A stretch of DNA of 39,497 nt from IMG/VR virus record IMGVR_UViG_2778261536_000006; one strand, 5' to 3'. The stretch's first letter is position 1. Each line of letters starts with the position of its first letter. The stretch is from a virus. Lineage: Duplodnaviria > Heunggongvirae > Uroviricota > Caudoviricetes. The position numbers and the translations under genes are program-made. This document shows positions 4,283-39,121 of the stretch, one piece after another. Under the pieces are notes generated by a model. The model saw nothing but the letters and a program-made list of their open reading frames with translations. It searched no databases and had not been told where the DNA came from.

Positions 4283-4528
4283 ATGACTTTTGATGAAAAA
4301 GAACTTGATAATGCAATTAATAAAATCATCGTAACGTCGCTCTTTTCCTGTCTCAGCGACACTCAGCAGAAACAGTTCTACGAATCGGCTTTCAACATGA
4401 TCGAGCGTTGTTGTTTCTGCGATGCCGACGAGTTACCTGAAAAAATCAGGAAACAGTTGGCTGATGCTCTTCGAGTGCGACTTTCTGACCAATTTTCTGA
4501 AATGTACTCTCCGAATTTGGACAAATAG
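4283..4528 (+). CDS. Hypothetical protein (81 aa), antisense to the early-left operon
   Basis: ATG with AAAGGAAAA upstream; overlaps the 3' end of the convergent ORF 4446-4721; coding status uncertain. Confidence 0.3.
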   Translation: MTFDEKELDNAINKIIVTSLFSCLSDTQQKQFYESAFNMIERCCFCDADELPEKIRKQLADALRVRLSDQFSEMYSPNLDK

Positions 4529-4721
4529 AAAAAGGCCATTTCCATTCAGGGTCTGATGGAAAGACTTCAGCCTGTTCCAAAGCACGGCGTAAAGAGAATA
4601 CAACTCCAGCCATAATCTGATGTTTCCCATTGGTCCAGCTATCGCCGCTCTGATCTACAGGAGCGGCTATGTCGTATGACCAAACGACTTCACCACTATT
4701 GTTTAAAATCTGGACTTTCAT
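4446..4721 (-). CDS. Hypothetical early protein (91 aa)
   Basis: ORF in operon orientation with GGAGG 12 nt upstream; overlaps the convergent plus-strand ORF; uncertain. Confidence 0.3.
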   Translation of the reverse strand: MKVQILNNSGEVVWSYDIAAPVDQSGDSWTNGKHQIMAGVVFSLRRALEQAEVFPSDPEWKWPFSICPNSESTFQKIGQKVALEEHQPTVS

Positions 4722-4729
4722 TTTGTTCT

Positions 4730-4951
4730 TTAACCTCCAGATTTCCGCGCATCTAAAGGCGCATTCTCATTTGGTGTGAACTGAATAGTTGTGCTGATAT
4801 TGATTAATGCCCCGACACACAAGACTACGCACTCAGAGCAGATAGCAACTTCATCTTTTCCGCCTTTGGCGATGATTTTTTTTGCCTGCAGCTCGTTTGC
4901 GCCACAAAACGAGCATGTGAAATAACGGTTCATTTGCGCTCTCTTACACAT
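4730..4951 (-). CDS. ClpX-type C4 zinc-finger (ZBD-like) small protein
   Basis: CSFCG...EVAICSECVVLC matches the CxxC...CxxC pattern and spacing of the ClpX N-terminal zinc-binding domain; first gene of the leftward operon. Confidence 0.5.
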   Translation of the reverse strand: MCKRAQMNRYFTCSFCGANELQAKKIIAKGGKDEVAICSECVVLCVGALINISTTIQFTPNENAPLDARKSGG

Positions 4952-5126
4952 AGTATTTAACGAATCATCCGGTCATTCATACGCCACCGGCGGCTACTTC
5001 GTGTTCGTCCTGACTGTTCGTTTTTGACATTTACTGACCGCTTACGACACATGCACCATGCACCGTGTTGCAACTAGATTTTGTTGTAATCCTGTAGTTG
5101 GTCTGGAACAAAAGATAAAATTAAAA

Positions 5127-5163
5127 TGCGATATACGCAAGTAATATTTTGCGAGATGTGCAA
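5127..5163. promoter_or_regulatory. Putative left operator sites (TTGCG/CGCAA half-site motifs)
   Basis: TGCGATATACGCAA (5127-5140) and TTGCGAGATGTGCAA (5149-5163) share half-sites with the cI-cro intergenic sites. Confidence 0.35.
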
Positions 5164-5175
5164 ATTATGGGTGAT

Positions 5176-5196
5176 AAAAAGCCACCTTTCGGTGGC
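5176..5196 (-). terminator. Rho-independent terminator downstream of the repressor gene
   Basis: Minus strand reads GCCACC-GAAA-GGTGGC followed by TTTTT, just 3' of the cI-like stop. Confidence 0.55.
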
Positions 5197-5216
5197 CGAT
5201 GGATGGGATATTGAAG

Positions 5217-5909
5217 TTAATTATGTCTCTTAAGGGTTTGCGACTGACTGATTAAGACCTTTCCAAAGACCATGAATCGGTGTTCGTTTTCGCTAGTAAT
5301 TCCCCATTCACGGTAAATCTGGTTATCAGAAATCACCAGCAGTTTGTCAGGAATCATTTGAAGTCTTTTAACGTATATTTTGTCATCAAAACCAAAGACA
5401 TATATACCATCACCATCAAACTGATTGATGCTGACATCAACGAAGATGAGATCTCCTGGCTCAATGGTTGGACACATACTGTCCCCACGAACGTTGATAA
5501 CTTTGATGTGATTGGCTGGTCGTCCGCCGAACATTGATACAGCATTATCAGTTCTGTATTCGATGGCATGAATCACATCAATGACATCACCGCCCTGGAT
5601 AAGGCCATTTCCCGCACTGGCACTGATATCCAACATTTCAATACGGAACACATCCTTCACCTGCGCAACATCCTCATCATTACTGTTTTTATATACAGTA
5701 TTACTTTTGAGGGCAGAGGTAAAGAGATCAGCAATATCAACACCTAAGCTCTTGGCAATATTACTCAGTGTTTGTTCGGTAAATTGTTTCTGCTTACCCG
5801 TTTCTAAGCGCGAGATGTTCGCCGCATCTACTCCTATTGCTTCAGCGAGATCGGCGATTTTCATGTTCTTCGCTTGGCGAAGTTGTCTGACTCGTTTTCC
5901 TATGTTCAT
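5217..5909 (-). CDS. CI-like phage repressor (HTH-XRE plus S24 LexA-like peptidase domain)
   Basis: 230 aa; N-terminal HTH and C-terminal S24 motifs (GDSM...KRL); divergent from the Cro-like gene. Confidence 0.85.
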   Translation of the reverse strand: MNIGKRVRQLRQAKNMKIADLAEAIGVDAANISRLETGKQKQFTEQTLSNIAKSLGVDIADLFTSALKSNTVYKNSNDEDVAQVKDVFRIEMLDISASAGNGLIQGGDVIDVIHAIEYRTDNAVSMFGGRPANHIKVINVRGDSMCPTIEPGDLIFVDVSINQFDGDGIYVFGFDDKIYVKRLQMIPDKLLVISDNQIYREWGITSENEHRFMVFGKVLISQSQTLKRHN

Positions 5910-5929: not shown

Positions 5930-5992
5930 TTGCGTGATAAGCAAATCAACTTGCGCAAAATACTTGCGTGAAATAACATGCATAACGCGCAA
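5930..5992. promoter_or_regulatory. Operator/promoter region between cI-like and cro-like genes
   Basis: TTGCGTGATAAGCAA (5930-5944), perfect palindrome TTGCGCAA (5951-5958) and TTGCG...CGCAA (5964-5992) in the 97-bp divergent intergenic region. Confidence 0.5.
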
Positions 5993-6006: not shown

Positions 6007-6267
6007 ATGCAATCACCATTACGAAATGTGCGTAAGGCGCATGGTTTCACTTTGCAGCATGTTGCTGCGGGTGTTCAAGTCAATCCAGCGACGTTGAGTC
6101 GTATTGAGAGGCTGGAGCAGATTCCATCTATCGAGCTTGCAGAACGTTTAGCCAATTTTTTTAAGGGTGAAATCAGCGAAATGCAGATTCTTTATCCGGC
6201 ACGTTTTCAATCTAGCCAAAACCAGAATGGGTTTAAACCACAGGAACAGGAGGTGAACCGTGGGTAA
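6007..6267 (+). CDS. Cro-like HTH (XRE family) regulator
   Basis: 86 aa with N-terminal HTH; divergent from repressor; GGAGG 4 nt upstream. Confidence 0.7.
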   Translation: MQSPLRNVRKAHGFTLQHVAAGVQVNPATLSRIERLEQIPSIELAERLANFFKGEISEMQILYPARFQSSQNQNGFKPQEQEVNRG

Positions 6268-6811
6268 GCATCACTGGAAAATAGAAAAACAGCCTGAGTG
6301 GTACGTGAAAGCTGTCAGAAAAACTATCGCGGCGTTGCCGGGTGGTTACGCTGAAGCGGCTGATTGGCTCGATGTAACAGAAAACGCTTTATTCAACCGC
6401 CTTCGTGCAGATGGCGATCAGATTTTCCCGCTGGGATGGGCAATGGTTTTACAGCGTGCTGGTGGCACTCACTTCATTGCTGATGCTGTGGCGCAGTCTG
6501 CAAATGGCGTATTTGTGTCTCTTCCTGACATCGAGGATGTGGACAACGCCGATATCAACCAACGCCTGCTGGAGGTCATTGAACAGATCGGCAGTTATTC
6601 AAAACAGATTCGTTCAGCAATTGAAGACGGTGTAGTGGAACCGCATGAGAAGACAGCAATTAACGATGAGCTGTACCTCTCAATTTCGAAGCTGCAGGAG
6701 CATGCAGCACTGGTCTACAAAATCTTTTGCGTTTCAGAAAGTAGTGACGCCCGCGAGTGTGCAGCTCCGGGCGCCGTGGCGTGTCGTGACTGTGGAGAAA
6801 CTAACGCATGA
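6260..6811 (+). CDS. Putative lysogeny/early regulatory protein (CII-like position)
   Basis: 183 aa, GTG start with AGGAGG 6 nt upstream, immediately after cro; family assignment tentative. Confidence 0.4.
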
Positions 6812-7155: not shown

Positions 7156-8097
7156 ATGAGCACTAAATTAACCGGCTATGTATGGGATGGTTGCGCAGCG
7201 TCAGGCATGAAATTATCCAGCGTGGCAATTATGGCCCGCCTGGCTGATTTCAGTAATGACGAAGGTGTGTGCTGGCCATCAATTGAAACCATTGCCCGCC
7301 AGATTGGCGCGGGGATGAGTACCGTCAGAACGGCTATCGCACGGCTGGAAGCAGAAGGCTGGTTAACGCGTAAGGCGCGTCGCCAGGGTAACCGCAATGC
7401 GTCGAATGTTTATCAGCTTAACGTTGCGAAGCTTCAGGCAGCGGCATTTTCTCAACTGTCAGATTCTGACCCGTCAAAATCTGACGCATCAAAATCTGAC
7501 CCGTCAAAATTTGATGCGTCGAAATCTGGCAAAAAAGCGGGTTTTCACCCGTCAGAATCTGGCGGGGATCCGTCAGTAAAATCAAAACATGATCCGTCAG
7601 ATAAAAAACCTTCTCGTCCGGACGCTTCGCAACCGGACACGCAGACGGATGAACAGGATTTTTTAACTCGCCATCCTGATGCGGTTGTATTCAGCCCTAA
7701 AAAGCGCCAGTGGGGAACGCAGGATGATTTGACCTGCGCACAGTGGCTCTGGAAAAAAATCATCGCCCTGTACGAGCAGGCTGCCGAATGTGACGGCGAG
7801 GTGGTTCGTCCCAAAGAACCGAACTGGACAGCCTGGGCAAACGAAATTCGCCTGATGTGTGTGCAGGATGGTCGTACTCACAAACAAATCTGCGAGATGT
7901 ACAGCCGCGTCAGCCGCGATCCGTTCTGGTGCCGTAACGTGCTCAGCCCGTCGAAGTTGCGGGAAAAATGGGATGAGCTTTCCCTGCGCTTATCACCGTC
8001 CGTCAGCACGTACACCGAAAAACGCGAAGACCCGTACTTCAAATCCAGTTACGACAACGTGGACTACAGCCAGATCCCGGCAGGATTCAGGGGGTGA
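7156..8097 (+). CDS. Replication initiator (O-like, winged-HTH N-terminus) containing origin iterons
   Basis: 313 aa; HTH-like N-terminal domain; repeat-rich linker encoded by tandem DNA repeats; position after cro/cII as in lambdoid replication modules. Confidence 0.6.
   Translation: MSTKLTGYVWDGCAASGMKLSSVAIMARLADFSNDEGVCWPSIETIARQIGAGMSTVRTAIARLEAEGWLTRKARRQGNRNASNVYQLNVAKLQAAAFSQLSDSDPSKSDASKSDPSKFDASKSGKKAGFHPSESGGDPSVKSKHDPSDKKPSRPDASQPDTQTDEQDFLTRHPDAVVFSPKKRQWGTQDDLTCAQWLWKKIIALYEQAAECDGEVVRPKEPNWTAWANEIRLMCVQDGRTHKQICEMYSRVSRDPFWCRNVLSPSKLREKWDELSLRLSPSVSTYTEKREDPYFKSSYDNVDYSQIPAGFRG
7465..7606 (+). repeat. Iteron array (putative ori) inside the replication initiator gene
   Basis: Four tandem 15-bp units TCTGAC(C/G)C(G/A)TCAAAA at 7465-7524, then a degenerate unit and three spaced CCGTCAG copies to about 7606. 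Confidence 0.55.
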
Positions 8098-10780: not shown

Positions 10781-11776
10781 GTGACCGTGAGAGCACTACT
10801 GACCCCTGAAATAGCCCCGCGTATGGGGATTGTATTGTTCAGACCAGGTTCAGAGCTGATGCCCCTGTTTATGCAGGGGCGTGTCCTGCTGGAGCCTGAG
10901 CCGGAACGTTATTCATCTTTCGCCAGTGGTGCCGTTCCGGCGGCATCACAACCGCTGGCGGATGATCCTGCCGTTAGGGCCGTGTTCCGCAATGAGGCAG
11001 TGATCCGTCGTGCTGGTGGCGTGGAATGTCTTGAAAGCTGGTTACTTCGTGAAAAAGGCTGCCAGTGGCCTCATTCCGACTGGCACAGCGAGAACATGAC
11101 CACAATGCGACACGCGCCGGGCGCGATCCGTCTGTGCTGGCACTGCGATAACCAGCTGCGCGATCAGTTCACGGAACGGCTGGAATCAATGGCAACGGAT
11201 AACTGTGCCCGCTGGGTGTTGTCTGTAGTCCGTCTGGATCTCGGTTTTGATGATAACCATGCCGTGACAATGCCGGAACTGTGCTGGTGGCTGATTCGTA
11301 ATGACCTGGCGGATGCCTTACCGGAAAGTGCAGCCCGTAAGGCACTGAGATTACCGAAGCCTGTTGTGCCGTCTGTCACCCGGGAAAGTGACCTTGTGCC
11401 TTCGGTTCCTGCCACCAGCATCATCCAGGATAAGGCGAAAAAGGTGCTGGCGCTGAAAGTGGATCCGGAGTCGCCGGAGTCTTTTATGTTACGCCCAAAA
11501 CGCCGCCGCTGGGTTAATGAAAAGTACACGCGCTGGGTTAAGACACAGCCGTGTGCATGTTGTGGAAAGCCTGCTGATGATCCCCACCACCTGATAGGCC
11601 ACGGTCAGGGTGGAATGGGTACAAAAGCGCATGACCTCTTTGTGTTGCCTTTGTGCAGAAAGCATCACGACGAGCTGCATGCGGATACCGTGGCATTTGA
11701 AGAGAAGTATGGCTCTCAGCTGGAGCTGATATTTCGTTTTATCGATCGTGCGCTGGCAATTGGCGTATTGGCGTAA
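10781..11776 (+). CDS. DUF968 (YdfU-like) protein with C-terminal HNH-like Cys/His motif
   Basis: 331 aa; C-terminal CACCGKPADDPHH...CRKHHDELH; typical position between nin-region genes and Q; GTG start. Confidence 0.6.
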   Translation: MTVRALLTPEIAPRMGIVLFRPGSELMPLFMQGRVLLEPEPERYSSFASGAVPAASQPLADDPAVRAVFRNEAVIRRAGGVECLESWLLREKGCQWPHSDWHSENMTTMRHAPGAIRLCWHCDNQLRDQFTERLESMATDNCARWVLSVVRLDLGFDDNHAVTMPELCWWLIRNDLADALPESAARKALRLPKPVVPSVTRESDLVPSVPATSIIQDKAKKVLALKVDPESPESFMLRPKRRRWVNEKYTRWVKTQPCACCGKPADDPHHLIGHGQGGMGTKAHDLFVLPLCRKHHDELHADTVAFEEKYGSQLELIFRFIDRALAIGVLA

Positions 11777-11789
11777 GTGGAGAACGAGC

Positions 11790-12542
11790 ATGAACCTTGA
11801 AGCCTTACCAAAATATTACTCCCCAAAATCTCCAAAATTGAGCGATGACGCACCGGCGACAGGCTCAGGTGGTTTAACGATTACGGATGTGATGGCTGCG
11901 CAGGGGATGGTGCAGTCGAAAGCACCGCTTGGGTTTGCCTTATTCCTGGCAAAAGTTGGTGTTCAGGATCCTCAATTTGCGATTGAAGGTCTGCTCAATT
12001 ACGCGATGGCACTGGATAACCCGACATTGAACAAATTGAGTGAAGAAACCCGGTTACAGATCATCCCTTACCTTGTGAATTTTGCCTTTGCTGATTATTC
12101 CAGGTCTGCGGCAAGTAAGGCTCGCTGTGAGCATTGTGCTGGTACTGGATTTCATAATGTATTGCGCGAAGTGGTGAAACACTCCAGAAGCGGGGAATCT
12201 GTTATCAAGGAAGAGTGGGTGAAGGAACTATGTCAGCATTGTCATGGTAAGGGAGAAGTCAGCACAGCGTGCAGAGGGTGTAAGGGTAAAGGTATTGTCC
12301 TGGATGAAAAAAGGACCCGGCTTCATGGCACGCCTGTTTATAAGATTTGTGGGCGTTGCAATGGAAACCGGTTTAGCCGTTTACCAACCACACTGGCGCG
12401 GCATCATGTCCAGAAGCTGGTACCAGACCTGACGGATTATCAGTGGTACAAAGGATATGCAGATGTCATTGATAAACTGGTTACAAAGTGCTGGCAGGAA
12501 GAAGCATATGCAGAGATACAATTGAGAAAGGTGACAAGATAA
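11790..12542 (+). CDS. Late-gene antiterminator Q-like protein
   Basis: Four CxxC zinc-finger-like motifs and close resemblance to Qin-prophage QuuQ as I recall it; start at ATG 11790 with GGAG upstream (track ORF starts earlier). Confidence 0.7.
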   Translation: MNLEALPKYYSPKSPKLSDDAPATGSGGLTITDVMAAQGMVQSKAPLGFALFLAKVGVQDPQFAIEGLLNYAMALDNPTLNKLSEETRLQIIPYLVNFAFADYSRSAASKARCEHCAGTGFHNVLREVVKHSRSGESVIKEEWVKELCQHCHGKGEVSTACRGCKGKGIVLDEKRTRLHGTPVYKICGRCNGNRFSRLPTTLARHHVQKLVPDLTDYQWYKGYADVIDKLVTKCWQEEAYAEIQLRKVTR

Positions 12543-35880: not shown

Positions 35881-36444
35881 ATGATTTACGGGTATGTTCG
35901 TGTATCAACAAATCATCAGGATACAGAGTTGCAACGTCTTGCACTTGAGTCAGCTGGCTGTGAGCGAATTTATGAAGAATATGCCAGTGGCAGAACAGCT
36001 AATCGCCCTGTGTTAAAGGAATTAATTACGGTGATGAAAAGTGGAGATGAGTTGATTGTCTGGAAGTTAGATCGGATAGGGAGAAATGTGCTGCATGCGC
36101 TATTGATGTTTCAAAATCTGCACGAAAAAGGTGTTAATTTTCGGAGTATTACAGATGGCGTAGACCTGAAAACAGCAAGTGGTCGCTATAATTTCCGTAA
36201 TATTCTTTCTGCTGCGCAGTATGAATCTGATTTGAATAGCGAGCGAACTTTAGCTGGTTTGGCTATTGCCAGATCCAAAGGCCGGATTGGTGGGCGTAGA
36301 CCGAAGTTTAGCGACGAGCAGTGGCAACAGATGGGAGCGCTCATAGCGGCAGGGAAATCACGGCGTTATGTTGCACGTATCTATAACGTTGGGCTATCAA
36401 CCCTATATAAACGATTTCCTGTTACTGGCATTCAAACGAAATAA
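35881..36444 (+). CDS. Serine DNA invertase (Gin/Pin/Hin/Cin family)
   Basis: 187 aa; N-terminal YGYVRVST with catalytic Ser, resolvase core, C-terminal HTH; adjacent to the invertible fibre segment. Confidence 0.85.
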   Translation: MIYGYVRVSTNHQDTELQRLALESAGCERIYEEYASGRTANRPVLKELITVMKSGDELIVWKLDRIGRNVLHALLMFQNLHEKGVNFRSITDGVDLKTASGRYNFRNILSAAQYESDLNSERTLAGLAIARSKGRIGGRRPKFSDEQWQQMGALIAAGKSRRYVARIYNVGLSTLYKRFPVTGIQTK

Positions 36445-36849: not shown

Positions 36850-36901
36850 TACTGTGTTTGTATACAGTATTATTTTTAACTGTATAGATAAACAGTGTCA
36901 A
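36850..36901 (-). promoter_or_regulatory. Tandem LexA (SOS) boxes overlapping a promoter for the DinI-like gene
   Basis: TACTGTGTTTGTATACAGTA (36850-36869) and AACTGTATAGATAAACAGTG (36878-36897), both CTGT-N8-ACAG; minus-strand TTGACA at 36896-36901 with an A/T-rich -10 about 17 bp downstream. Confidence 0.7.
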
Positions 36902-37995
36902 GAGGCCTTATTTCTGCTCCTTTGGAGCTCTTCAAAACGATTATGTAAAGATTTCGGATACAGTTCGGTATATACCTGCCATAGCACGTTTAATGAACGA
37001 TGCCCTGTAACCTGGGCGACTTCCTCAATACTAAAACCAGCCTCAAATAAGCGACTTGCCCCTTCTCTACGCAAATCATGGTATCGCAGATCTTTAATAC
37101 CTAATTTGCTTCTTACCCTCTGGAATCCCGCAGTAACAGAAGTGCTGTTATATGGAAAAATGAATTCTGATTTTTTGGGTTGTCGTTGGACGATATCCCA
37201 GGCTTCCCCAAGCAAGGCTACTTTCATATGGTTGCCTTCCTTTTTACGTGGATCTTTCCTGTCTCTTACGAGTATGGATTTTTGTTCCTGATCGAGATCC
37301 TCCCATCGTAATCGGCATACTTCACCGATTCGCATACATGACCACACAGAAAATTTGAGGATATCAACGAACGGAATTTTTGAGCATTTATGTGTAGATC
37401 GTTGTTGAAGACCTTCAATGAGCATGTCCAGTTCATCAGATGCCGGTCTACGATTACGACGATTTGATTTACCAATTAAACCAAGTTTAAGTAGATATGG
37501 ACGAGCGGCTTTTGCTGGGTTTGATGTGTAATTAATTCCATATACAGGTTTGGCAGCATCCAGAACACTGCCAAGATAACTAACATCGTGGCTAACTGTA
37601 GCTGGACCTGCACCAGCGTTGTTTCTTAGCCTGCAATGTTCAATTACGTCATTTTCTGTCAGTTCAGATAGTTTGATCGCGGAGATGTCACTATCCATAA
37701 GCAGTTCCAGCACATATCTTTTAGTACGGCCTGCTTTACCTCCGGCATTTGGGTCATTTAAATATTTGTGTAGTAAGTCACGGACTGTAAGTCCGTCAAC
37801 TGCATTTGATGATGGAATGCCATATAGATCTAATTCCATCACTTTCTGTGTGCCCCATGTTTTGGCATGAGCATGTTTAGGGAATGTTTTACTTTCCCTG
37901 TAAGTGATAACACCTTTTTCTTTGATAATCACATTACAGCGATAGCGTGGTGTGCCATCGGATTTTAGTCGTTTCTCTATGTTATAGTACGCCAT
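36898..37995 (-). CDS. Tyrosine integrase (DusA-associated type)
   Basis: 365 aa with C-terminal tyrosine-recombinase motifs; start is 88 bp from the dusA start codon, transcribed divergently. Confidence 0.85.
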   Translation of the reverse strand: MAYYNIEKRLKSDGTPRYRCNVIIKEKGVITYRESKTFPKHAHAKTWGTQKVMELDLYGIPSSNAVDGLTVRDLLHKYLNDPNAGGKAGRTKRYVLELLMDSDISAIKLSELTENDVIEHCRLRNNAGAGPATVSHDVSYLGSVLDAAKPVYGINYTSNPAKAARPYLLKLGLIGKSNRRNRRPASDELDMLIEGLQQRSTHKCSKIPFVDILKFSVWSCMRIGEVCRLRWEDLDQEQKSILVRDRKDPRKKEGNHMKVALLGEAWDIVQRQPKKSEFIFPYNSTSVTAGFQRVRSKLGIKDLRYHDLRREGASRLFEAGFSIEEVAQVTGHRSLNVLWQVYTELYPKSLHNRFEELQRSRNKAS

Positions 37996-38083: not shown

Positions 38084-39121
38084 ATGCACGATAATCATGA
38101 AACACAAAAAATTAATCAAACCAGCGTGATGCCTGAAAAAACTGGTGTTTACTGGAATTCTCGGTTTAGCATTGCTCCTATGCTCGACTGGACGGACAGA
38201 CATTGCCGCTATTTCTTGCGTCTGCTTTCCCGCAATACGCTGCTGTATACCGAAATGGTGACCACAGGGGCGATTATTCACGGTAAAGGTGATTACCTGG
38301 CGTACAGTGAAGAAGAACATCCGGTAGCGTTGCAACTCGGCGGTAGCGATCCGGCGGCGCTGGCGCAGTGTGCGAAGCTGGCAGAAGCGCGCGGATATGA
38401 TGAGATCAACCTGAATGTCGGCTGCCCGTCTGACCGGGTGCAGAACGGCATGTTTGGTGCGTGTCTGATGGGTAATGCGCAGCTGGTTGCCGACTGCGTG
38501 AAAGCGATGCGCGATGTGGTGTCGATTCCGGTGACGGTGAAAACGCGTATTGGCATCGATGACCAGGACAGCTATGAATTTCTCTGCAATTTCATCAACA
38601 CCGTTTCCGGCAAAGGCGAGTGTGAGATGTTCATCATCCACGCACGTAAAGCCTGGCTTTCGGGGTTAAGTCCGAAAGAAAACCGTGAGATCCCGCCGCT
38701 CGATTATCCGCGTGTGTATCAACTGAAGCGTGACTTTCCGCATCTGACAATGTCGATTAACGGTGGTATCAAGTCGCTGGAAGAGGCCAAAGCACACCTG
38801 CAACATATGGATGGCGTGATGGTCGGGCGCGAGGCGTATCAGAATCCGGGTATTCTGGCGGCGGTAGACCGGGAGATCTTTGGTTCCTCGGATATCGATG
38901 CCGATCCGGTGGCGGTAGTGCGCGCCATGTATCCGTACATTGAGCGTGAACTCAGCCAGGGGACGTATCTCGGTCATATTACCCGGCATATGTTGGGCTT
39001 GTTCCAGGGTATTCCTGGCGCGCGGCAGTGGCGGCGTTATTTAAGTGAAAATGCCCATAAAGCGGGTGCAGACATTAATGTGCTGGAACACGCGCTCAAA
39101 CTGGTGGCGGATAAGCGTTAA
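38084..39121 (+). CDS. dusA: tRNA-dihydrouridine synthase A
   Basis: 345 aa, highly recognisable DusA sequence ([16 protein letters not shown]...[10 protein letters not shown]...), followed by pspG as in E. coli. Confidence 0.9.

Follow-up and report, generated by a model that had tools for sequence, protein, structure and literature searches.

What a temperate phage might do with a free ClpX-type zinc-binding domain (ZBD) is the question raised by one small gene in a 39,497-nt stretch of Caudoviricetes DNA (IMG/VR record IMGVR_UViG_2778261536_000006), hereafter referred to as the window. ClpXP controls lambda O, the Mu transposase and repressor, sigma-S, UmuD′, several antitoxins, and restriction alleviation, and the original prediction held that a small early protein mimicking the ClpX ZBD could compete for ClpX adaptors or substrates. 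The window represents a region of an SfII/SfV-like temperate phage from E. coli/Shigella, and its immunity region is 97% identical to that of Shigella phage SfII.

Gene Model and Domain Assignment

The predicted open reading frame (ORF) is present on the minus strand at 4730-4951 and encodes the motifs CSFCG and AICSECVVLC. The gene is real, but its start shifts inward, and the coding sequence occupies 4730-4933 (-), specifying 67 amino acids plus a stop codon instead of 73. This assignment as a stand-alone ClpX-type ZBD protein draws on Pfam, PDB, and model/Foldseek comparisons, on homologue starts, and on dN/dS. The second ATG is taken as the true start because all homologues compared begin with MN(R/S/N)Y and because a Shine–Dalgarno-like AAGAGAG (4939-4945, -), read from the sequence, lies 5 nt ahead of the ATG at 4933. 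Other ZBD subfamilies carry AGGAG or GAGG at the same spacing from the start, and database entries for the protein are 67 aa long. The in-frame 5′ extension of the mechanical ORF, MCKRAQ (4934-4951, -), is not conserved in homologues, has no Shine–Dalgarno sequence before the ATG at 4951, and is probably not translated. In the 67-aa numbering, the codons of the putative zinc ligands on the minus strand are those of Cys7 (4913-4915), Cys10 (4904-4906), Cys32 (4838-4840), and Cys35 (4829-4831). Residues 1-45 form the ZBD core; from about residue 50 onward follows a variable tail with predicted disorder.

The match to the ClpX C4 domain that had been proposed from spacing and flanking residues stands up to profile searches. 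Pfam zf-C4_ClpX (PF06689) recognizes the protein with E 1.4e-10 and a score of 41.3 bits (gathering cut-off, 27), over profile positions 2-34 of 39; relatives score 26-45 bits against the same profile. In a Pfam scan at E up to 1, zf-C4_ClpX was the sole significant family: the Elf1 zinc ribbon (E 0.069, 13.7 bits vs. a cut-off of 29.8) and NOA36 remained far below their cut-offs, and neither the CsfB/Gin-type anti-sigma nor the DksA/TraR C4 zinc finger profile gave a match. The 67-, 112-, and 121-aa forms matched no PADLOC-DB defence model at E up to 0.1. Sequence searches of the PDB returned the E. coli ClpX ZBD (2ds5/1ovx) as top matches, with E values of 1.5e-4 to 2.5e-4.

The AlphaFold model of the 67-aa protein has a mean pLDDT of 68, with values of 74-85 in the core and below 50 in the tail. 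In a Foldseek comparison with the PDB, ClpX ZBDs take the first seven places (TM on target 0.70-0.82, rmsd 1.4-2.0 Å, 36-41% identity), which points to a predicted treble-clef fold of two hairpins and a C-terminal helix similar to the ClpX ZBD. Similarity to ClpX is highest in CSFCG, whose Phe9 is the counterpart of ClpX F16, in the strand KKIIAKG (RKLIAG in ClpX), and in the helix ECVVLC; the four cysteines C7, C10, C32, and C35 are invariant across alignments of relatives. The spacer between the two CxxC pairs comprises 21 residues in the phage protein vs. 18 in E. coli ClpX, and GGK aligns as a three-residue insertion between the pairs. In the docking patch, F16 is retained as the invariant Phe9, and the strand beside it is conserved. 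At the position of I46 the phage protein has Ala, and the family varies there; the positions of ClpX Y34, D41, N44, and I46 correspond to Ala, Val, Val, and Ala/variable, respectively. The C-terminal helix is kept and is more hydrophobic than that of ClpX (ECVVxCV).

The protein thus shares with the E. coli ClpX ZBD a C4 site, a predicted treble-clef beta-beta-alpha arrangement, CSFCG with the docking-patch Phe, a KLIAG-type strand, and a hydrophobic C-terminal helix, whereas it departs from it in having no AAA+ module, in its 36-41% identity, in the three-residue loop insertion, and in the disordered variable tail. At the sequence level, its status as a genuine ClpX ZBD homologue is confirmed; zinc binding and dimerisation may be expected by analogy. 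An ATPase domain had been predicted to be missing, and the NCBIfam ClpX equivalogs NF003745 and TIGR00382 indeed match just the ZBD part of this 67-aa protein, with 25.7 bits (cut-off 359) and 23.2 bits (cut-off 371) and at model positions 5-48 only. Because these equivalogs match only about their first 45 positions, the phage protein contains no ATPase.

Locus Organization and Putative Early Promoter

The placement of the ZBD gene as the first gene of the leftward early operon draws support from synteny, namely from cI and a terminator upstream on the same strand, from operator repeats, and from a promoter in related loci. The upstream gene encodes a cI-type repressor (5217-5909, -) with HTH and Peptidase_S24 domains recognized by Pfam, and is annotated as cI in the 97% identical SfII region. 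An intrinsic terminator 3′ of the repressor gene (5180-5197, -), found by a terminator scan and also annotated in SfII, splits cI transcription from the pL operon. Operator-like repeats TTGCACATCTCGCAA and TTGCGTATATCGCAT (about 5126-5166), common to the cro-side operator region at 5931-5974, are located together with a putative pL at 5112-5166 (-). The hexamers proposed for this promoter (-35 TTGCGT, 5135-5140; -10 TATCTT, 5112-5117; -) are a weak match and were not detected by a consensus promoter scan, and because of their weakness pL of the window is treated as putative. The arrangement of operator repeat and pL also occurs in Salmonella-type loci, and in several repressor classes a good sigma-70 promoter (e.g., TTGACA-17-CATAAT) precedes by about 20 nt a conserved leader extending into the ZBD gene. 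The ZBD gene would be expressed early from pL.

Among 80 IMG/VR loci carrying the ZBD gene, which form our locus sample, the nearest same-strand upstream gene encodes a repressor of 208-244 aa that stops 170-340 nt before the ZBD start. These repressors fall into at least seven classes unrelated to one another, all of which combine HTH and S24 domains, and the slot of the ZBD gene beside the repressor is conserved.

The next gene of the operon (4446-4721, -) encodes a 91-aa protein of PHROG 3195 (E 8e-64), has its own GGAGG within the last ZBD codons, and is found in SfII without the ZBD gene. It converges on a plus-strand ORF at 4283-4528 that matches phrog_3311 (3e-55); the two overlap by 83 nt, and SfII annotates the plus-strand one only. 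Beyond the repressor, the window contains cro (6007-6267, +) and genes for a 186-type CII (Phage_CP76; 6260-6811), an O-like HTH replication protein (7156-8097), and a Q antiterminator (11748-12542).

Several other features were observed outside the early region. A tyrosine integrase gene (36898-37995, -) is divergent from the host dusA (tRNA-dihydrouridine synthase; 38084-39121, +), and the window therefore seems to include the dusA-side prophage end. A PrtN/excisionase-like gene (1250-1558) lies at the end opposite the integrase, and a Hin/Gin-type invertase gene (35881-36444) adjoins the tail-fibre region. The window starts with a SocA/Panacea-domain antitoxin-like gene (1-573, +) followed by a 139-aa ORF (570-989, +; phrog_19071), which possibly constitute a toxin–antitoxin pair at the prophage edge.

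Conserved Leader RNA

The pL leader contains a conserved structured RNA of 61-64 nt (4958-5021, -), recognized by conservation and covariation. It is 90-100% identical 3′ of at least seven unrelated immunity regions and also in SfII, which lacks the ZBD gene, and is present on more than 120 IMG/VR contigs. The N-less phages bearing it span six enterobacterial genera, and it co-occurs with a 186-type CII (Phage_CP76) gene in most loci. The element lies 80-120 nt past the cI stop and is unannotated in SfII, SfV, SfIV, ST64B, phiNP, YeP1-3, ZF40, AH07, and Kp4866-6.

The element comprises a hairpin GUC-AGGAC-GA(C), an outer stem CGAA/UUCG (4998-5001 with 4961-4964), and an inner stem CCGGU/ACCGG (4986-4990 with 4969-4973) with an invariant 12-nt loop. 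The inner 5-bp helix is paired in all 14 sequences compared, with double compensatory changes at four of its five pairs, and the loop and flanks are sequence-invariant. None of 500 shuffles reached the observed covariation score, and slid controls collapsed; covariation supports a structure of three helices. Folding of a single sequence gives an energy that does not stand out (z +0.5). A covariance model of the leader finds a single copy in the window, at 86 bits. A second, putR-like copy was considered and rejected, the next match (11.6 bits) being located within the KilA-N gene, and so was a small ORF, since no start is conserved for the 38-aa arginine-rich frame at 4957-5073, which is interrupted in other variants.

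No Rfam family matches the element, and HK022 and HK639 are absent among its blastn matches. Lambda nutL and HK022 putL occupy the same place (PMC9378689), and SfII, SfV, and SfIV have been reported to lack N, CII, and CIII homologues (PMC3851460). We regard the element as a candidate nut/put-like or other regulatory leader.

Distribution and Prior Annotation

SfII has the same immunity region, leader, and next gene (PHROG 3195) but no ZBD gene. Of 120 leader-bearing contigs, 40 carry the ZBD gene, and in the remainder this position is occupied by over 25 unrelated small ORFs. Because SfII lacks it and 80 of the 120 leader loci hold other cassettes, the ZBD gene is an optional cassette, one of many exchangeable ones in an accessory slot, and is dispensable. 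One locus (L078) has an immunity region 100% identical to that of the window, yet encodes a 121-aa ZBD variant. The slot right after the leader is hypervariable across loci L082-L201, and one locus (L135) encodes a different, longer ZBD-fusion protein (MELIKCAFCGK...; 130 residues match zf-C4_ClpX, E 4.5e-9).

The ZBD gene is present as a single copy in 98 of 5,426 complete E. coli genomes, and in 95 of 100 matching records from complete E. coli genomes the identity to the window gene is at least 99%. At least 1000 contigs encode the exact 67-aa protein. Relatives in sequenced phages are limited to Salmonella 118970_sal3, Salmonella F1055, and one E. coli fragment. The family of the gene, PHROG 5259, is labelled "unknown function," and the protein is named "ClpX C4-type zinc finger protein" in RefSeq and "ClpX-type ZB domain-containing protein" in UniProt. 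The annotation is thus not new, as the domain is already named in public databases, and the description of the gene as under-described is fair for its function but does not extend to its domain. Our literature search turned up no publication on a ClpX-type zinc finger protein that is phage-encoded or stands alone.

No association with a specific replication protein was seen: only about half of the ZBD loci have the O-like protein of the window nearby, and it also occurs next to loci that lack the ZBD gene. In Caulobacter, SocA serves as a ClpXP adaptor, and a link to the SocA/Panacea antitoxin gene at the start of the window was considered and rejected, as that gene was found in only one or two of 40 ZBD-containing loci. 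The optional presence of the ZBD gene and the missing association with a replication module or Panacea gene do not separate the competing functional readings.

Subfamilies, Selection, and Frameshifts

Four ZBD subfamilies, of 67, 61-63, 112, and 121 aa, were distinguished in IMG/VR prophages. Between subfamilies, the 45-residue core shows pN of 0.14-0.23 vs. pS of 0.65-0.95, with saturated synonymous sites, and dN/dS of the core is about 0.1-0.25 where computable. The core is under purifying selection, and this is a real, selected gene. Tails past about residue 50 are unrelated between subfamilies, and two subfamilies have C-terminal extensions of 60-75 residues; the extensions of the 112-, 121-, and 203-aa variants contain no Pfam domain. 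The tail of the window protein derives partly from a cassette boundary, because its last codons overlap the junction where SfII homology resumes (about 4743).

A run of eight A residues within the coding sequence (4876-4883, -; codons Ala17-Lys18-Lys19-Ile20) is a recurrent site of -1 frameshifts. In 5 of the 80 IMG/VR loci, the frameshifted gene encodes the truncated 35-aa product MNRYFTCSFCGANELQAKKSSPKAEKMKLLSALSA, and one lineage of complete E. coli genomes matches over 203 instead of 204 nt, with the gene left unannotated. These frameshifts could represent decay or slippage-based on/off switching.

Relationship to Other Stand-Alone ZBD Proteins

A profile search of 1.84 billion representatives yielded 451 matches at E up to 1e-3. 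Among the best 150 of these 451, almost all are 50-300 aa long and contain one, two, or four ZBDs (36 in one case), and only two are of ClpX length; on this last count, recent capture from a host clpX was rejected. A word-indexed search identified more than 4,300 small stand-alone or tandem ZBD proteins. The idea of a mimic of the host ClpX ZBD did not survive this comparison, since the phage protein, at 36-41% identity to ClpX, is nearer to thousands of small or tandem ZBD proteins than to ClpX. Judged from sequence relationships, the gene is a branch of an old stand-alone ZBD clade and no recent copy of host clpX.

Relatives were found in several genomic contexts. A 56%-identical relative from Enterobacteriaceae occupies the same post-cI slot, a Desulfovibrio-type relative lies directly 3′ of the repressor gene in a Mu-like prophage with MuA and MuB, and another is located within a phage early rightward operon. 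Chromosomal relatives were also sampled; their contexts varied, and some were near ECF sigma genes. In one chromosomal operon (L210), an ECF sigma gene is accompanied by genes for two stand-alone proteins, one Clp_N and one ZBD; this adjacency gives a hint that free Clp N-domains are used elsewhere as proteolysis modulators, and they may be a general regulatory device. Tandem-ZBD-only bacterial proteins were observed with four copies in 226-295 aa and with 36 matched stretches in 2505 aa (P0017, P0024, and P0025). A scan of species-representative genomes returned two weak Clostridia matches only and is little informative.

Possible Function of the ZBD Protein

Given its ClpX homology, predicted fold, lack of an ATPase, purifying selection, and conserved slot beside the repressor, the best-supported reading, which we hold tentatively and rate somewhat short of evenly balanced, is that the protein acts as a free ClpX N-domain decoy competing for N-domain ligands. 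Mu repressor and MuA are classical ClpX clients. A small zinc protein with the ClpX N-domain fold, probably dimeric by analogy with ClpX, would be made early from pL upon infection or induction and would bind the docking signals of adaptors (SspB, RssB, UmuD-type) and also those of substrates (lambda-O-type initiators, MuA, Mu-repressor-type proteins, some antitoxins). ClpXP degradation of N-domain-dependent clients would be lowered and ssrA-type direct degradation left intact, and the payoff would be either the stabilisation of a phage protein or the blocking of a ClpXP-triggered host response. Such decoy activity is, as a whole, putative.

This reading is plausible because the isolated ClpX ZBD inhibits adaptor-dependent degradation in vitro. 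As summarized in PMC7226468, which cites Wojtyra 2003 and Thibault 2006, the isolated ZBD supplied in trans competes for adaptor or substrate docking in vitro, and either purified ClpX ZBD in trans or the SspB XB peptide inhibits RssB-mediated sigma-S degradation by competition (PMC7226468). Degradation of lambda O depends on the ZBD and does not occur in its absence, and the hydrophobic F16/I46 patch of the ClpX ZBD docks lambda O, SspB, RssB, and trigger factor (PMC7804408). Residue-level ligand contacts used in the comparison above were taken from PMC7804408 and PMC7226468. The phage protein resembles the laboratory fragment in being a free ZBD without an ATPase, and the competition exerted by the fragment is the activity proposed here; unlike that fragment of a host protein, the phage gene is natural, diverged, and phage-encoded. 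Ligand specificity may differ from that of ClpX because of the 36-41% identity, the changes of I46 and Y34 to Ala, and the three-residue loop insertion. A role at the lysis–lysogeny decision would fit, because relatives recur beside repressors, including in a Mu-like element with ClpX-client-type proteins.

Phage inhibitors of AAA+ proteases include lambda CIII, acting on FtsH, and T4 PinA and T7 Gp4.5, acting on Lon, and lambda RexB has been reported to shield lambda O from ClpP-type degradation; CIII is encoded in the lambda pL operon, and rexB adjoins cI. The ZBD protein would resemble these small phage proteins, some of them early, that tune host proteolysis, whereas it has no sequence or fold relation to them and none of them copies a protease recognition domain. 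The anti-adaptors IraD, IraM, and IraP are likewise small proteins and block RssB delivery to ClpXP, but they bind RssB via unrelated folds and are host stress regulators, not phage genes. Our literature search found no natural example of a phage-made free ClpX recognition domain.

Several findings weigh against the decoy reading. The closest kin of the protein are stand-alone or tandem ZBD proteins without an assigned function, not ClpX; the gene is optional, being absent from SfII and present in 40 of 120 leader loci, and is frameshifted in some lineages; and the 60-75-residue extensions of two subfamilies are not explained by a pure decoy.

The main rival is that the ZBD fold serves merely as an interaction scaffold for another host or phage target, such as a sigma factor or a component of transcription, replication, or defence, unrelated to ClpXP; we consider this possible but on the unlikely side. 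Changed surface positions for ClpX Y34, D41, N44, and I46, the thousands of small stand-alone or tandem ZBD proteins, whose chromosomal contexts vary and include the neighbourhood of ECF sigma genes, and the many unrelated accessory cassettes of the post-leader slot are all consistent with it. A further precedent is B. subtilis CsfB (Gin; PDB 5N7Y), a dimeric treble-clef zinc anti-sigma factor that is structurally nearest to the ClpX N-domain (PMC5890618). CsfB is about 20% identical to ClpX, and the authors of that study doubt common ancestry (PMC5890618); CsfB, which binds sigma factors, has no Pfam match to the phage protein. Against a scaffold unrelated to ClpXP stand the strong ClpX-profile match, which includes the docking-patch Phe and the edge strand, and the lack of matches to other zinc finger or anti-sigma families in Pfam or to PADLOC models.

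Alternatively, the protein might act on ClpX itself, pairing with or docking on its N-domains and thereby blocking them or serving as an adaptor, in which case the C-terminal extension of the 112-203-aa forms could carry cargo to ClpXP. According to PMC5890618, which cites Donaldson 2003, the ClpX ZBD dimerises via its helix and hairpins, and the phage helix is retained and more hydrophobic; longer variants have additional C-terminal regions, and many relatives contain two or four tandem ZBDs, consistent with a pairing unit. This mode of action would nevertheless need a putative heterodimer with an already dimeric ClpX N-domain, and all that the 67-aa form has beyond the core is a disordered, non-conserved tail with an end made by the cassette junction; we judge this mode unlikely.

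Less probable still is a nucleic-acid-binding zinc ribbon acting on early-operon transcription, e.g., with the leader RNA, either as an N substitute or as a Nun-like exclusion factor. The ZBD gene lies directly 3′ of the conserved structured leader, HK022 nun sits at the analogous first position, and the sub-threshold Elf1 similarity noted above would point in the same direction, as would the absence of an N gene from SfII/SfV/SfIV-type phages (PMC3851460). The protein is, however, near-neutral in charge and has no arginine-rich motif, its Elf1 score is far under the cut-off, and the leader works without the ZBD gene, as SfII and two thirds of leader-bearing loci lack it.

A decaying or neutral passenger cassette without current function would account for the optional presence, the frameshifts at the A8 run, and the junction-derived tails, but strong purifying selection on the core over four old subfamilies with saturated synonymous sites, conserved Shine–Dalgarno sites, and the wide occurrence of the exact protein make this very improbable.

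Implications

Extended beyond the window, the decoy reading suggests, as a doubtful but possible generalization, that several temperate lineages (lambdoid SfV/ST64B-type, Mu-like, and others) place a free ClpX recognition domain beside the repressor and thus re-route ClpXP at the lysis–lysogeny switch. Should another partner be bound, the finding would shrink to a correctly annotated domain in an accessory-gene slot. If the decoy reading is true, these proteins would be the first natural ZBD-based ClpXP modulators and would give phages a simple and specific means of shutting down just the adaptor- or N-domain-dependent branch of ClpXP. A first function would then be available for a very large family of small zinc proteins that have gone unstudied, and the thousands of stand-alone and tandem bacterial ZBD proteins would represent a general, unrecognised class of ClpXP regulators.
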